A DNA stretch of 64,000 nucleotides, from assembly GCA_963663865.1 (NCBI GenBank), contig OY760686.1, positions 3,008,001-3,072,000 on the forward strand, written 5' to 3'. Each line of letters starts with the position of its first letter. Position 1 is the stretch's first letter. The notes below the pieces were generated by a model. That model saw nothing but the letters and a program-made list of their open reading frames with translations, had not been told where the DNA came from and did not search any database. Source of the DNA: Spirochaetota bacterium. GTDB lineage: Bacteria > Spirochaetota > UBA4802 > UBA5550. The translations under genes and the position numbers were made by a program. This document shows positions 3,881-37,997 of the stretch, piece by piece.

Positions 3881-4040
3881 CGCGGGAAAGTTACAAATCA
3901 TATTGATTCATATGCTCCAATCCGATTTTCCTTGACATGTTTTTCTTTCTGACACCATAAAAGATCAGCAGAGCGCCTATCTTGCGCCTGTCTCCCCGCA
4001 GCATTCAGACGTGAACAATACATTTTCCTGGAGAGTTATT

Positions 4041-4601
4041 ATGAAGAAGACTCATCGTCCGTTATATTTTATTTTTTTCGCCCTGACGGTTCTATCCCTG
4101 TTGTCCTTTACAGCCTGCGGCTCAGCAGTTAAACGTCAAATATCAGACGGCAACTACGATCAGGCTGAGACCCTGCTCAGACAGGATGGATATGAAGGAA
4201 GCCACCTTTATAAAGAGATGGGCGATAAATGCCTCAGCACCGGGAAAACAGTCATGGCGCTTGACTACTATGTAAAGTCCGGGATGTCGGAAGAAGACGC
4301 CAGCATAACAATAGCCAGTTCCATAGTAATGCCTGGCGAAAGAGACATTCAGAAATACATCAATCACTCTTCATACAGAAACTACCTCACAATGATGCAA
4401 AAGATTAACCGCACCCGCCGTCACCGGGACCTGAACGCGAGAAAACACGCTATAAATGCCTTTAAAATATACAAGGAAGGTTCCTGGCCTTCAGCAGGAC
4501 CCGCTGTTCTTGCCGAATACATGAAATCAATCGACGCAAAAATCAAGAGCAAAGCGGTAAAAATAAGATTTGAGTACAGGCAAAGCAAGAAGGGGAAGTA
4601 A
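4041..4601 (+). CDS. Hypothetical lipoprotein (TPR-like helices)
   Basis: GGAGAG RBS and signal peptide ending LSFTAC. An upstream TTGACA lies at 3932. Confidence 0.75.
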   Translation: MKKTHRPLYFIFFALTVLSLLSFTACGSAVKRQISDGNYDQAETLLRQDGYEGSHLYKEMGDKCLSTGKTVMALDYYVKSGMSEEDASITIASSIVMPGERDIQKYINHSSYRNYLTMMQKINRTRRHRDLNARKHAINAFKIYKEGSWPSAGPAVLAEYMKSIDAKIKSKAVKIRFEYRQSKKGK

Positions 4602-33487: not shown

Positions 33488-34480
33488 TCAAAGCCTTTTT
33501 TTAAACTCAACGAGATCCTGAGGACCGTCAATATCGTTTTCCCATCTGCCGGCGTTCTTCTTTATTCTAAAAAAAACACCCGAATAGTCGGACAAATCGA
33601 GTTTGTAGAGTCTGGACAAAATATCGAGGAAAGTCTGATACAGCTCAGTAAAAACAATGCTCTTTCTTCGGATTTGCCCTACAAGACGATATTTTTTGAG
33701 TTTGATAAGATAATACATAATTTTTGAAATTGAGCTCGGTGTAAGAGCCTTCCTTAGATTGTACAGAAGATTAAGGCTCTGTCTGGCGACAAGACCATCG
33801 ATGCTCATGTGCTTAATAAATGAAGCGCTGTTTCCAATACGCACCGGCCCGTCCGTAAAGTTTACAAAGCTTTTCAGCTTTCCCTTTTTCTGGCCTCTTT
33901 TGAAAAACTTGATCCTATGAGGAAGCCAATTATCCTTTCTCATATCATCATAGTGGACAACACCGTAAATCATTCTTACCGGCACCCCCCTGTAATCGCT
34001 TTCATTTGCGAAGATATCGGTATATGAATCAAAAATATACTCTACATCCTCGGATGTTATTCGGGGGGTATCTCCAAAATATATGTCTACCCGCTGACCG
34101 TATTCGACAAGCGGATAGAAATCCTTCATATGCCCTGCGACAGATTCAGTCATCTGCCTTATTTCAAGATTGTCATAAGCCGAAACGTCCACTGTTTTCG
34201 TAAAGCTCTTGATGTCGTTGTAGACGTAAACCTTTTCGTATATTCTCTTCCCGTTTTTTCTTGCGCCGTAGACGGCATCCAGGACATAGCTTATAATCGG
34301 CCTCCCCTTCACGGAGTAAAGAAACTTGTTCTTCCCCATGTAGAGCTCTTCACCGTCGTATGATTCCTTGATCTCGCGTTCATATTCCCTTCTTGTGGCG
34401 TGATCAACCCTGTTATACCCGGCAAGTATTAGCGCGACAGGACCCATATTACCGCCGCTTTTATCATTCGGTAATTTCAT
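33488..34480 (-). CDS. Nucleotidyltransferase-fold (MobA/NTP_transf_3-like) protein
   Basis: ALILAG, NKFLYSVKGRPIISYVLDA, FGDTPRIT and a C-terminal NDIDGPQDL motif. Confidence 0.65.
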   Translation of the reverse strand: MKLPNDKSGGNMGPVALILAGYNRVDHATRREYEREIKESYDGEELYMGKNKFLYSVKGRPIISYVLDAVYGARKNGKRIYEKVYVYNDIKSFTKTVDVSAYDNLEIRQMTESVAGHMKDFYPLVEYGQRVDIYFGDTPRITSEDVEYIFDSYTDIFANESDYRGVPVRMIYGVVHYDDMRKDNWLPHRIKFFKRGQKKGKLKSFVNFTDGPVRIGNSASFIKHMSIDGLVARQSLNLLYNLRKALTPSSISKIMYYLIKLKKYRLVGQIRRKSIVFTELYQTFLDILSRLYKLDLSDYSGVFFRIKKNAGRWENDIDGPQDLVEFKKRL

Positions 34481-34503: not shown

Positions 34504-35202
34504 TTATATACCACGGACTTCACAAATATCAGCAAAATCCCTTACCACATCCGCGAGAGCCCTCAGAACATCAGTATGAAGAGGTTCAACAGACGAATAC
34601 TCTTCCCCCAGAAGCGTAGTGCCGGCAGCAAACTGCTGAAGGTAGTATTTTCCGACCTTTCCAACCCTGCCGCCAATTTCCCGCAAAATATTTTCATTCA
34701 CATAACCTGGCACACATGTAGTGCGCAGTTCATATTCGATACCGCTTTTTTTTAACAGATTTGCCGTCTCGGCAATCCTGTAAAAGTCCGCTTCTACCCC
34801 GGTCAGTACAGAATACAGAGAAGGCGAGGTCTTAATATCCAGGGCAGCATACTCAATTGCTTCCGAAGCAAGAAGGCTTTCAACAACTTCCGGGAGCATA
34901 CCATTTGTATCAAGCTTAACGGGAAGCCCCAGCTTACCAACGCAGAGCGCAAAATCAACAATATCCTCATTCAGAGTCGGCTCTCCGCCAGACAGAACTA
35001 CACCGTCAATAAGCCCCTTTCTGGAGGCAAGGTACTGCAGCACGTCCTCTTCCGAGTGGACAGGCAGCTCCCTGCTGTTCAGAGCCAGATCAGGATTGTG
35101 ACAAAAACCGCAGCGCATATTGCACCCTCCGGTAAAGATTACAGTTGAAATCTTCCCGGGATAGTCTACAAGCGATGTTTTATAAAGTCCTCTGATATTC
35201 AT
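34504..35202 (-). CDS. nrdG: Anaerobic ribonucleoside-triphosphate reductase activating protein (radical SAM)
   Basis: SLVDYPGKISTVIFTGGCNMRCGFCHNP (CxxxCxxC), GVVLSGGEPTL and KLDTNG. Confidence 0.93.
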   Translation of the reverse strand: MNIRGLYKTSLVDYPGKISTVIFTGGCNMRCGFCHNPDLALNSRELPVHSEEDVLQYLASRKGLIDGVVLSGGEPTLNEDIVDFALCVGKLGLPVKLDTNGMLPEVVESLLASEAIEYAALDIKTSPSLYSVLTGVEADFYRIAETANLLKKSGIEYELRTTCVPGYVNENILREIGGRVGKVGKYYLQQFAAGTTLLGEEYSSVEPLHTDVLRALADVVRDFADICEVRGI

Positions 35203-35356
35203 TGGAAAGCACTGTTTCCCTGTTTACGATATATGTTTTTCTTTCTTTAAACTCTTCCTGTTTCCCCCTGTTCCACTGATTGACCGGCCTGAAATAACCC
35301 ACAACCCTTGAATAAACCTCAACCGGTACTTTTACTGTTTTGTTCTTAACGCTCAT
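35180..35356 (-). CDS. Stand-alone NrdD C-terminal glycyl-radical domain (58 aa)
   Basis: Hand translation MSVKNKTVKVPVEVYSRVVGYFRPVNQWNRGKQEEFKERKTYIVNRETVLSNEYQRTL*. A GGGAG RBS sits 6 nt before the ATG. It contains the RVxGY glycyl-radical motif and the WNxGKxxEF tail of class III RNR, and overlaps the nrdG start by 23 nt. Confidence 0.9.
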   Translation of the reverse strand: MSVKNKTVKVPVEVYSRVVGYFRPVNQWNRGKQEEFKERKTYIVNRETVLSNEYQRTL

Positions 35357-35429
35357 TTCAATCTCCCGCCGTAATACGGCTTACTCTAAATAATAATATA
35401 TTAAACTTTTCCCATGACAGCCACTATCT

Positions 35430-37487
35430 CTACTCGTCCTCTACATCAACCTCTACGCCAAATGCCCGCAGATCTTCAGCTGAATGCTCATAGGGGCAAA
35501 ACTTGTGTTCTCCCGGAATATAGCCGTGTACAGGGCAGACACTGAATGTAGGCGTCAGTGAAAAATAAGGCAGATGATATCTGGATGAGACCTTTTTTAC
35601 GAGGGCTTTGACTACATCTATGTCGTCTATTTTCTGACCAAGAAAGAGATGCACAACCGTTCCTCCGGTAAACTTAACCTGAAGATTATCCTGATGGTCA
35701 AGAACTTCGAACATATCACTGGTGTATGAAACAGGAAGATGGACCGAGTTGGTATAATAGGGTTCATCCGAACCTGCTGTGACTATCTCGGGGAACTCCG
35801 AGCGGTCTTTCCTGGCAAGCCTGTAGCTTACACCTTCAGCCGGTGTTGCCTCAAGATTATAAAAATTGCCTGTCTCCTCCTGGAACTCCATTATGCGTTC
35901 TCTCATGAAATCAAGGACTCTCACCGCAAATTCCTTTCCTTCTATTGAAGATATGTCCGCGCCGTGCATATTCAGACAGGCTTCGTTCATTCCGACAAGT
36001 CCTATGGTTGAGAAATGGTTTCCCCAGAACTTGCCGTCCCTGAGCCTTATGTCGCTCAAATAATGCTTTGTGTAGGGATACAGATTGCTTTCAGTAAACT
36101 TCTCAAGCACCTTCCGCTTTATCTCAAGTGAATTGCGGGCGAGCCTCATCAACGACTCCAGAGAAGCGAAAAAATCCTGCTCATTGCCTGTACGGAAAGC
36201 CAGTCTGGGTAGATTTATCGTCACAACCCCGATGCTTCCGGTCAGAGGGTTGGCGCCGAAAAGCCCGCCGCCTCTCTTGCGAAGCTCTCTGTTATCAAGC
36301 CTGAGCCGGCAGCACATTGACCGGGCATCCTCAGGATCCATGTCTGAATTAACATAATTAGCAAAATACGGGATTCCGTAACGGGCCGTCATTTTCCAGA
36401 GGTTATCAAGCTTTGGATTGTTCCAGTCAAAGTCTCTCGTTATGTTGTAGGTCGGAATCGGAAATGTAAAGATTCTGCCCTTTGAATCGCCATCCATGAG
36501 ACACTCGGCAAAAGCAGCATTAAAAATATCCATCTCATCCTGAAATTCGGAGTATGTCTCATTCATGTATTCGCCGCCGATGACGGCATATTCTCCTCCG
36601 ATGTTTGAAGGTACAACAAGATCAAGAGTAACATTGGTAAACGGCGTCTGAAAGCCTACTCTGGTCGGAATGTTCATATTAAAGATGAACTCCTGCAGAC
36701 ACTGTTTCACATCCTTATAGCTAAGCCCGTCATACCTTATAAAGGGGGCAAGATAGGTATCAAAGTTTGAAAAAGCCTGAGCGCCGGCAGATTCACCCTG
36801 CAGGGTGTAAAAGAAGTTAACAATCTGCCCGAGAGCACTTCTGAAATGCCTTGCCGGTCTGCTTTCAATTTTTCCGGGGACACCGCCAAAGCCTCTGATT
36901 AAAAGGTCCTTCAGATCCCACCCGACGCAGTACGCCGAGAGCAGCCCCAGATCATGCAAATGAAAATCTCCCGCGACATGTGAATCCCTTATTTCGGGGG
37001 GATATATCCTCTCAAGCCAATACTTTGCTGTGATGTCGGCGGCAATATGATTGTTAAGGCCCTGAAGCGAATAGCTCATATTGCTGTTCTCGTTTACACG
37101 CCAGTCTGACCTGTCAAGGTACTCCTCTATCAGCTGGACGCCTTCGCCGAGAAGGTTTGCGGCGTCACGCAGATTCCTGTGCTGCTCTCTGTAGATGATG
37201 TAGGCTTTTGCCACTCTGGCATGGCCCCGCTCAATGAGCATTTTTTCGACAAGATCCTGAACATTCTCAACGGTGGGGATGCGGCCGTCTTTAAAAAGTA
37301 TGTCAAGTATTCCTGTAATTGACGCAGTAACAGACTCGGCGGTGTTCCTGTCGCTGCCTCCTACGGCCTCAACAGCCCTATATATAGCGTTAGTGATTTT
37401 ATCTGTATCAAACGGAACGACTCTCCCGTCCCGTTTTCTGATGTATCTGCCCTCCGCGTTCTGTAACATCAAAGGCTCCGTATTCAT
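35430..37487 (-). CDS. nrdD: Anaerobic (class III) ribonucleoside-triphosphate reductase large subunit, lacking the C-terminal Gly-radical loop
   Basis: N-terminal ATP-cone (IRKRDGRVVPFD), SAYCVGW, SMCCRL thiyl-radical loop, NLEATPAEG and FTGGTVVH. It ends CPVHGY...CPYEH...DVEDE* with no RxxGY. Confidence 0.95.
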   Translation of the reverse strand: MNTEPLMLQNAEGRYIRKRDGRVVPFDTDKITNAIYRAVEAVGGSDRNTAESVTASITGILDILFKDGRIPTVENVQDLVEKMLIERGHARVAKAYIIYREQHRNLRDAANLLGEGVQLIEEYLDRSDWRVNENSNMSYSLQGLNNHIAADITAKYWLERIYPPEIRDSHVAGDFHLHDLGLLSAYCVGWDLKDLLIRGFGGVPGKIESRPARHFRSALGQIVNFFYTLQGESAGAQAFSNFDTYLAPFIRYDGLSYKDVKQCLQEFIFNMNIPTRVGFQTPFTNVTLDLVVPSNIGGEYAVIGGEYMNETYSEFQDEMDIFNAAFAECLMDGDSKGRIFTFPIPTYNITRDFDWNNPKLDNLWKMTARYGIPYFANYVNSDMDPEDARSMCCRLRLDNRELRKRGGGLFGANPLTGSIGVVTINLPRLAFRTGNEQDFFASLESLMRLARNSLEIKRKVLEKFTESNLYPYTKHYLSDIRLRDGKFWGNHFSTIGLVGMNEACLNMHGADISSIEGKEFAVRVLDFMRERIMEFQEETGNFYNLEATPAEGVSYRLARKDRSEFPEIVTAGSDEPYYTNSVHLPVSYTSDMFEVLDHQDNLQVKFTGGTVVHLFLGQKIDDIDVVKALVKKVSSRYHLPYFSLTPTFSVCPVHGYIPGEHKFCPYEHSAEDLRAFGVEVDVEDE

Positions 37488-37997
37488 TATTTTGTATTTT
37501 TAATAGATATATCGACGATTATATTCAGCAAATCCCAATAACACGGTATGTACAAAAACCAGGCCGTGCCTGAGGGGGAAAACGCAAACAACGAAAAACA
37601 GCTTAACGCTGCTCAGTATCCCGATTTTTATACATTTTATCCAATTTGGATGAGGAGATTCGCCCAGGCTCACATTCTGATTACCTTAAGTGACATAATC
37701 TGAACCATCGCCATATATCAAGTTACCATTTCAAACAAAAGAGTCAAATAATTTTTGCGACATAATACCATTAATTTCAAAAAGCCCGCAAAAATTAAAA
37801 TTACCGTATTTCCCCCGGTTCAGGGCTGCCGCCTTCTCCTCAATCAGACCACAATTATCAGTAATTACTGATAAAAATAATGTTTTATGCCGATATATCT
37901 GTGAGGTAACGAAATGAGCCCGTCCGGGTTTCCGGCCATCGAGCCCTTAATATCGGGGAATTTCATTCCCCCCTCATATCGACATAGAGGTAACAAG

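Follow-up and report, generated by a model that had tools for sequence, protein, structure and literature searches.

The locus described here raises the question of whether a class III (anaerobic) ribonucleotide reductase (RNR) can work when its glycyl radical is carried by a protein separate from its catalytic chain. It is located in a 64,000-nucleotide (nt) stretch of a Spirochaetota genome (contig OY760686.1, positions 3,008,001 to 3,072,000), referred to below in its whole length as the window. It comprises nrdD, coding for the reductase, nrdG, coding for its radical S-adenosylmethionine (radical-SAM) activase, and between them an unannotated open reading frame (ORF) of 58 amino acids (aa). 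The answer we favour, with a probability of roughly 0.78, is a working class III RNR formed from three gene products, the NrdD core, the 58-aa radical subunit and NrdG, in which O2 damage would fall on the replaceable part. The split itself is real and conserved. The features concerned are the following (coordinates of the window):

35430..37487, minus strand: nrdD, core subunit, 685 aa, from the ORF list and the raw sequence
35357..35429, minus strand: intergenic spacer of 73 nt, shifting the frame by 1
35363..35367, minus strand: Shine-Dalgarno-like GGGAG, 6 nt before the ATG of the small ORF
35180..35356, minus strand: ORF of the glycyl-radical subunit, 58 aa, containing EVYSRVVGYFRPVNQWNRGKQEEFKERK
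34504..35202, minus strand: nrdG, radical-SAM activase, 232 aa, overlapping the small ORF by 23 nt

The NrdD chain displays an ATP-cone, a 10-stranded barrel with the MCCR finger loop, a metal site and an acidic 17-aa tail, SAEDLRAFGVEVDVEDE, and the glycyl-radical motif is absent from its 685 residues. Its C-terminal end (...CPYEHSAEDLRAFGVEVDVEDE or ...FSVCPVHGYIPGEHKFCPYEHSAEDLRAFGVEVDVEDE, one and the same end) is followed by TAG AGA TAG, placing a second in-frame stop two codons past the first, inside the spacer. The small protein begins with a basic leader, MSVKNKTVKV, continues with the Gly loop PVEVYSRVVG20YFRP and a WNRGKQEEFKER helix, and terminates in a tail whose last codons are shared with the start of nrdG. 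The RVxGY motif is thus not on the NrdD polypeptide, and core and 58-aa ORF supply it as a pair. The start of nrdG overlaps the small ORF by 23 nt, and translational coupling of the two is therefore likely.

Family models delimit the two pieces precisely. Along the 684 positions of NF006126, NrdD covers 4-649 (1035.3 bits for a cut-off of 548) and the small ORF 650-682; along the 562 positions of Pfam NRDD they cover 1-526 and 533-562, respectively. The cut at NF006126 position 649/650 is clean and no residues are lost. NrdD is further matched by TIGR02487 (499.6 bits, cut-off 326), PF13597 (1.4e-176) and the ATP-cone model (4.8e-23), and NrdG by TIGR02495 (NrdG2, 186.7 bits, cut-off 131.15) and Radical_SAM (2e-22). 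The finger loop reads SMCCRL, and its M391, C392, C393 and R394 are invariant in 54 sequences, among which the core retains 160 invariant columns in total. The putative metal site, a C-terminal feature for which the family criterion is four Cys ligands, reads C651-x2-H654 ... C664-x3-H668, where fused relatives have C-x2-H ... C-x2-C. The sole Pfam match of the small protein at E <= 0.01 is NRDD, with none to the Gly_radical domain of the pyruvate formate-lyase (PFL) type, and a profile of the small family gave no match among PDB sequences at E <= 0.01. A preliminary description, made from the sequence alone, had stated that NrdD keeps its ATP-cone, SMCCRL loop and metal site and ends before the radical motif, on which family models and translation agree. 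The out-of-frame 73-nt spacer with a second stop two codons on, which it also reported, is visible in the raw sequence, and its identification of the 58-aa ORF, with its own GGGAG ribosome-binding site and its overlap with nrdG, as the missing NrdD terminus is borne out by NF006126.

The preliminary description had asked for an assembly error across 35357-35430 to be excluded. Logan contigs assembled from public runs of three studies cover the nrdD-nrdG stretch, and the interrupted frame was the same in all three. The first study provided one 45.9-kb contig with 0 differences, which may be the source sample; a contig of the second had 0 differences over 34606-37700; the third provided a 35.3-kb contig whose strain differs slightly, by 46 substitutions and by only two gaps, of 1 nt each, at 37497 and 37554, which both lie upstream of nrdD. 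Between 35357 and 35430 these contigs had no reported insertion or deletion, and the single listed substitution within the small ORF (35264) is synonymous at Gly31. The split arrangement is not an assembly error.

Comparisons with related genomes revealed how widely this arrangement, hereafter type A, is kept. A sample of 41 genomes from 7 families of the same order was searched with NF006126. The core was found in 40 of them, and in 39 of these 40 the positions ~650-683 were encoded either by a small frame of their own or, in frame, behind stops; in the remaining one nrdD is cut by the contig end. Twelve of these loci were read, 11 of them having a complete junction, and all 11 combine a core of 672-747 aa, ending in ...CP[YFH]x H[ST]xE[ED]Lxx[YF]G[IV]..., a spacer of 18-118 nt and an ORF of 54-67 aa overlapping nrdG. 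Among the 10 loci tabulated for spacer frame and overlap, frame offsets 0, 1 and 2 all occur, GGAG-type sites precede the small ORF in most (judged by eye), and the overlap with nrdG measures 23-41 nt in every case. The 118-nt spacer belongs to locus L006, which has two small ORFs in tandem.

The same picture was obtained from a scan of public genomes, whose best 80 loci were classified. Every one of the 54 loci labelled Spirochaetota encodes the motif in a small frame; the core is upstream in 44 of them, 2 lie at a contig edge and 8 are orphans. Fused genes account for 21 loci of other phyla (Paceibacterota/Parcubacteria, Saccharimonadota, Elusimicrobiota, Atribacterota, Bacillota and others); identity to these fused relatives is 51-63%, and their junction reads ...CPxC(x3-5)[PT]CEVYSRVVGY. 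The 5 remaining loci are a contig-edge fragment, a fused gene with an extra small ORF (L091), an unlabelled split and two Planctomycetota orphans. Truncated nrdD genes followed by a small ORF, proposed in the preliminary description as something to be sought in related genomes, are therefore the rule in the order and among the Spirochaetota loci, and its concern that close relatives might all be fused did not hold, as close and distant relatives alike are split. In two of the fused genes (L062 and L066, from Parcubacteria and Saccharimonadota) the NrdD frame reaches 1115-1149 aa and the match to the window's NrdD is broken by ~1.2 kb between residues ~611 and ~606-665, possibly by an insertion such as an intein.

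Searching 5.8 billion proteins retrieved 792 stand-alone homologues of 31-102 aa, and an alignment of 120 small homologues has 13 invariant columns, including G20. When 1.84 billion cluster representatives were searched with a profile, 4773 matches were obtained at E <= 1e-3, full-length NrdD included, the best 150 all being of 47-109 aa. In a first tree of the core, built after removal of the columns of the trait itself, the 38 split cores of Spirochaetota form one clade (99 in the Shimodaira-Hasegawa-like approximate likelihood ratio test, SH-aLRT), which requires no more than a single change of state. Purifying selection on the small ORF is strong: among 69 unique small ORFs (32 gap-free codons), the ratio of nonsynonymous to synonymous polymorphism (pN/pS) is 0.04-0.08 for pairs above 80% nucleotide identity, and diversity at the three codon positions is 0.15, 0.10 and 0.54. 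Recent pseudogenisation is ruled out because the split is conserved, its bearers form one clade and the small ORF is under purifying selection. A C-terminal '(N/Y)EYQ(R/G)' was considered as a further motif of the small protein and rejected, being explained by the overlap with the conserved nrdG start read in another frame.

The inventory of RNR genes indicates that the split enzyme functions, and does so in trans. In the window's genome (one contig, 98% complete), PF02867, the family of class I and II RNR, had 0 candidates. A second class III operon, single-chain, is located outside the window at C1:1170918-1175370 (~1.17 Mb) and encodes NrdR (167 aa), an NrdD of 946 aa (TIGR02487 370 bits, Gly motif near residue 876), a thioredoxin-like CxxC protein of 143 aa and an NrdG2 of 269 aa which is 34% identical to the window's NrdG. 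Such a second NrdD is present in only 4 of the 41 genomes of the order. The synthesis of deoxyribonucleoside triphosphates (dNTPs) de novo requires an RNR. Two genomes of the order, G032 and G038 (94 and 96% complete), had neither a PF02867 match nor any other NRDD core, and each has only the split core and three small genes; since no other RNR was found there and dNTP synthesis depends on one, the split enzyme must be active in both. In the complete genome G059 (2.76 Mb), the core is encoded at 712,268-713,863, and a 95-aa Gly-radical protein and NrdG at 1,315,639, ~600 kb away. This distance implies that the Gly piece must act in trans, and neither readthrough nor frameshifting can join the two pieces. 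Primase and sigma-70 genes are found upstream on the other strand in G059 (L189 C1:710000-716500; L174 C1:1310600-1320800). Inteins, introns and recoding were also considered as the cause of the break and rejected, given spacers of 18-118 nt with stops, all frame offsets, own ribosome-binding sites and pieces up to 600 kb apart. Taken with its conservation, the split enzyme is almost certainly functional, to judge from gene content and sequence.

The separation is accompanied by changes on both sides of the cut, revealed by comparing 56 unique endings of split cores (53 of type A and 3 of type B, described below) with 22 unique fused ones. The presumed third metal-ligand Cys is followed by P-x-x-H in 53/53 type A endings (49 with an xxxH and 4 with an xHxH pattern) and by x-x-C in 20/22 fused endings, so the putative fourth ligand shifts from C-x2-C in fused enzymes to C-x3-H in type A. 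A conserved tail, [ST]xE[ED]Lxx[YF]G[IV], comes after the type A metal site. At the position following the radical Gly-Tyr, at least 90% of the small proteins have Phe and the fused ones Leu or Tyr. Among the 53 unique pairs, the core tail is net negative in 52 (mean -3.6) and the peptide leader net positive in 49 (mean +1.8), from which we infer a possible electrostatic clamp between tail and leader.

A broader sample of 151 genomes of the phylum was searched with the profile of the small protein, and classes were read from frame sizes. The motif was present in 73 genomes. All 17 belonging to the window's order had it in frames below 100 aa; the other 56 comprised 18 with frames below 130 aa, 23 with frames of 148-235 aa and 15 with frames above 650 aa. 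The frames of 148-235 aa correspond to a second arrangement, type B, in the order NrdR, core of ~690-705 aa, radical protein, NrdG. In its core CP[HK]C is retained and a charged helix forms the end of the chain, and its radical protein combines a helix at the N-terminus with the Gly loop TEVY[ST]RIVGYYR and with a domain resembling glutaredoxin/thioredoxin (PF00462, down to 8e-9). Four radical subunits of type B, of ~160-216 aa, were located:

L176:4737-5276, minus strand: type B radical subunit
L179:4694-5239, minus strand: type B radical subunit
L183:4819-5400, plus strand: type B radical subunit
L180:5004-5654, plus strand: type B radical subunit

A large database contains 341 type B-like proteins, from Treponema and Spirochaetaceae, named 'hypothetical', 'thioredoxin family protein' or 'ribonucleoside-triphosphate reductase'. 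Seven of the 15 frames above 650 aa were inspected, of which five are ordinary fused NrdD and two are long single ORFs, L178 (2701-5151, plus strand, 816 aa) and L188 (798 aa), which have the split-type tail, a low-complexity linker and the Gly loop in one ORF. In a second tree of 50 rows, type A (20 rows plus L178 and L188) and type B (6 rows) form separate clades (SH-aLRT 100 and 98), type B is sister to a fused spirochete enzyme, and L178 and L188 are nested inside type A (SH-aLRT 100). The minimum of three changes of state may be read as two independent splits and one re-fusion within Spirochaetota. Judging by these sequences, the split is the majority state in the sampled phylum and arose there at least twice; the remark of the preliminary description that the architecture may recur underestimated its scope, the more so as it is also common in viral contigs.

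Copies of the small gene also occur apart from the operon. Two or three small genes are present in 13 of the 41 genomes of the order, the window's own genome having one, and the eight orphan loci of Spirochaetota have no nrdD or nrdG within 4 kb. Mu Gam and GemA adjoin one of these orphans, and an amidase and a lytic transglycosylase are encoded next to another. Orphan radical-peptide genes just downstream of Mu-type Gam, GemA or transposition genes were recorded in a Spirochaetota genome (L054:2190-3157 and 4001-4120) and in a viral contig (L104:96-1557), which suggests Mu-like phages as carriers of the peptide. In a scan of viral contigs providing 80 loci, 71 could be classified by motif, 56 in frames below 130 aa, 12 in frames of 134-263 aa and 3 fused, proportions that are biased by search patterns favouring the small type. 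Only 4 stand-alone viral loci have a split core nearby. All ten viral records examined whole contain NRDD positions ~530-562 only, three of them being rated 100% complete, and no NrdG above the cut-off was found in the five viral records searched for it. Terminase, portal, Mu transposition or helicase and methylase genes stand beside 4 of 6 viral loci checked, the other 2 giving nothing, and neighbours in a protein atlas are NRDD clusters of 48-61 aa with few recorded taxa, mostly viruses. The orphan and phage copies fit a part which acts in trans and can be separately supplied.

Two loci outside the phylum resemble these orphans. In Thermoguttaceae (Planctomycetota), L083:3836-4120 and L084:3842-4123 are orphan ORFs of 93-94 aa covering NRDD 502-561, beside a phage-tail-repeat protein, and are probably prophage-borne. 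The Paceibacterota locus L091 has a fused NrdD (709 aa), then a 94-aa ORF (4159-4449, plus strand) with a CxxC...CxxC zinc ribbon and the Gly loop, then nrdG; from its sequence this ORF reads as a true spare copy beside an intact enzyme, in the manner of GrcA, the small glycyl-radical protein associated with PFL.

Some further features of the window concern the start of nrdD and its possible regulation. No ribosome-binding site precedes the first ATG of nrdD (37487), a GGAG stands 6 nt upstream of the ATG at 37469, and the N-termini of relatives (…YIRKRDG) align with the latter; the true start is thus probably 37469, for a predicted product of 679 aa. Within the spacer we noted one weak promoter-like element, as a hint only:

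35393..35420, minus strand: CTGTCA-16-TATTAT

The promoter scan was at chance level (8 sites for 5.6 +/- 2.5 expected from shuffles), as was the terminator scan (5 sites for 4.2 expected), and the RNA structure of the spacer did not go beyond chance (z = -0.21). Rfam gave 0 matches over the whole 64 kb, and a search for the NrdR-box, using a consensus motif and allowing up to 3 mismatches, gave a single match, inside nrdD and at chance level. Directly downstream of nrdG, a 330-aa ORF (33488-34480, minus strand) has a weak match to MobA-like nucleotidyltransferases (NF001457 4.9e-6, PF12804 0.004).

How the three products could work together may be sketched from these data. NrdG would abstract a hydrogen atom from G20 of the small protein, free or docked, and the conserved overlap of the small ORF with nrdG could keep peptide and activase together through co-translation. 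Docking would be aided by the acidic tail of the core and the basic leader of the peptide, and the Gly loop would enter the barrel beside C392/C393 of the finger loop, like the attached loop of a single-chain NrdD. The chain is divided between its Zn site and the Gly loop; in the available text on the Prevotella copri (P. copri) enzyme, the glycyl-radical domain of NrdD is described as highly mobile and as a Zn site followed by a buried loop with the radical Gly (PMC11226230). O2 cleaves glycyl-radical proteins at the radical glycine, according to the accessible parts of PMC12288474 and PMC13450708. Such damage would hit the 58-residue part, fragments would leave and a fresh peptide would load, the 685-residue core being kept, and one to three genes would supply the pool of peptide, with phages contributing to it in other hosts. 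MCCR is the double-cysteine finger-loop class, which may use formate or thioredoxin (section 2.5 of PMC9669993, the portion consulted), and the glutaredoxin-like domain on the type B small subunits would fit a thiol reductant. What we infer here is that the peptide binds, at which site it is activated and that it is exchanged once O2 has damaged it; the idea of a cheap exchangeable part, put forward in the preliminary description, would be the rationale.

The three-component reading of the preliminary description, an NrdD core with a separate radical protein and NrdG, was borne out wherever it could be examined by computation, in the interrupted frame, the split relatives, the purifying selection, the sole RNR of two relatives and the orphan and phage copies. 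Several observations nevertheless weigh against a replaceable radical subunit, or limit what can be built on it. The partners in type B have helix-rich ends that resemble a permanent tether more than an exchangeable fit, and the re-fusion in L178 and L188 indicates, from sequence, that separation is not indispensable. AlphaFold2 gave no usable placement of the Gly loop in the re-fused L178 (816 aa; mean predicted local distance difference test, pLDDT, 76.4; linker and Gly segment, ~733-816, 29-48). The small protein modelled alone was mostly disordered, with a mean pLDDT of 68, a predicted template modelling score (pTM) of 0.32 and only short helices at 30-37 and 46-51. The window's genome has its own second, single-chain NrdD operon, and class I/II RNR is present in 34 of the 41 relatives, in most of which the split enzyme is therefore not the sole RNR. 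The trees were quick searches with SH-aLRT support only and no bootstraps.

The best surviving alternative, which we consider unlikely, accepts a functional enzyme and denies the split any role in repair: a neutral fission would have left the peptide permanently and tightly attached as a subunit, with no exchange following O2 damage and the enzyme behaving as a single-chain NrdD does. The class II pair NrdJa/NrdJb offers an example of a split RNR without a repair rationale, in the part of PMC9669993 available. The re-fused form nested in the split clade would work as one chain, the matching ends of the type B partners suggest stable tethering, and the operon order with the nrdG overlap fits stoichiometric co-production. 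Against such a fixed subunit, at least two independent origins in one phylum point to an advantage, and extra orphan copies occur in 13/41 genomes. A phage peptide without core or activase, moreover, is sensible only if a peptide from another gene can load onto the resident core.

Far less probable is that the core is inactive or only regulatory and that the small protein serves as a GrcA-like spare for a full-length NrdD after O2 cleavage, here the 946-aa enzyme encoded at 1.17 Mb. The complete NrdR-NrdD-thioredoxin-like-NrdG operon of the window's genome would allow it, and GrcA/YfiD acts in this manner for PFL, according to the consulted parts of PMC13450708 and PMC8683613. Yet a second NrdD exists in only 4/41 genomes, core and small gene being kept in 39/40 core-bearing ones, G032 and G038 have no other RNR, and the core keeps its 160 invariant columns, finger loop included. 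The small protein is 13/28 identical to the Gly region of the second NrdD, yet exactly continues the family model of its neighbour. As for artefact or decay, whether assembly or sequencing error, a recent pseudogene or programmed readthrough or frameshifting that yields one protein, such cases usually show themselves by a stop after which an ORF continues the protein, but the explanation is hardly credible against the same junction in three independent contig sets, a split kept in at least seven families with spacers varying in length and frame, several stops and own ribosome-binding sites, a pN/pS of 0.04-0.08, and core and Gly piece ~600 kb apart in a complete genome.

Beyond a three-part enzyme with a replaceable radical subunit, the data allow a wider proposal, which we advance tentatively and at slightly less than even odds. 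NrdD-type peptides may represent a large unrecognised family of autonomous radical cartridges, charged by NrdG off the core, loaded and discarded after O2 damage, with at least two origins in Spirochaetota and one form bearing a glutaredoxin-like domain; phages would bring the cartridge alone to restart or boost the anaerobic dNTP supply of the host. If this is true, a spare-part system would be known for the first time for a glycyl-radical enzyme beyond PFL, and for the first time with the spare part as the only part. The split NrdD makes the question of spare-part repair directly testable for ribonucleotide reduction, an essential reaction, and its peptides of 54-67 aa constitute a minimal substrate for studies of target recognition and activation by NrdG. 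It also suggests how anaerobes at oxic-anoxic boundaries may economise on repair, and points to a possible new kind of phage auxiliary gene. It highlights a problem of annotation as well, the small genes being named 'anaerobic ribonucleoside-triphosphate reductase', 'thioredoxin family protein' or 'hypothetical', and the cores resembling ordinary full-length NrdD. The author of the preliminary description knew of no characterised obligately split class III RNR, and our full-text literature search, which left subscription journals mostly outside, likewise turned up no account of any split class III RNR, nor of a spare part of the NrdD type. Three papers considered as precedents (PMC4390871, PMC11528403 and PMC11226230) use 'split' in other senses in the passages retrieved and were set aside.

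Among known systems, the closest is the single-chain NrdD/NrdG of phage T4 (1H78/1H7A), Thermotoga maritima (T. maritima; 4COI/4U3E) and P. copri (8P23), which likewise has an ATP-cone, a barrel, a finger-loop cysteine, a metal site, an RVxGY loop, a WNxGK helix and a radical-SAM activase. By comparison, the chain described here stops after the metal site and the Gly loop is the product of its own gene. The presumed fourth ligand is a His at +4 rather than a Cys at +3, an acidic tail is added to the core and a basic leader to the peptide, and Phe follows the GY. The class Ia NrdA of Aeromonas phage Aeh1, an RNR large subunit, reportedly works as two polypeptides, split by an inserted homing endonuclease gene. 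In contrast, no gene lies between the pieces here, and the cut isolates the radical loop. The class II NrdJa/NrdJb of Pseudomonas aeruginosa (Crona 2015, as cited in the portion of PMC9669993 consulted) likewise distributes an RNR chain over two genes, with a C-terminal module on the second, but belongs to another, B12-dependent class and is an analogy only. The Escherichia coli protein GrcA/YfiD and Y06I from phage T4 are, like the present peptide, small stand-alone glycyl-radical loop proteins matching the C-terminus of a large enzyme, with phage-borne versions in both cases. [quoted passage not shown] YfiD has a mass of 14.3 kDa (PMC8683613, same part), compared with 58 aa here. The present small protein belongs to the NRDD family and not to the PFL Gly_radical family, and would at most be GrcA-like in its working, not a member of that group; and its partner core has no radical domain of its own, which makes the peptide an obligatory component and not a back-up.

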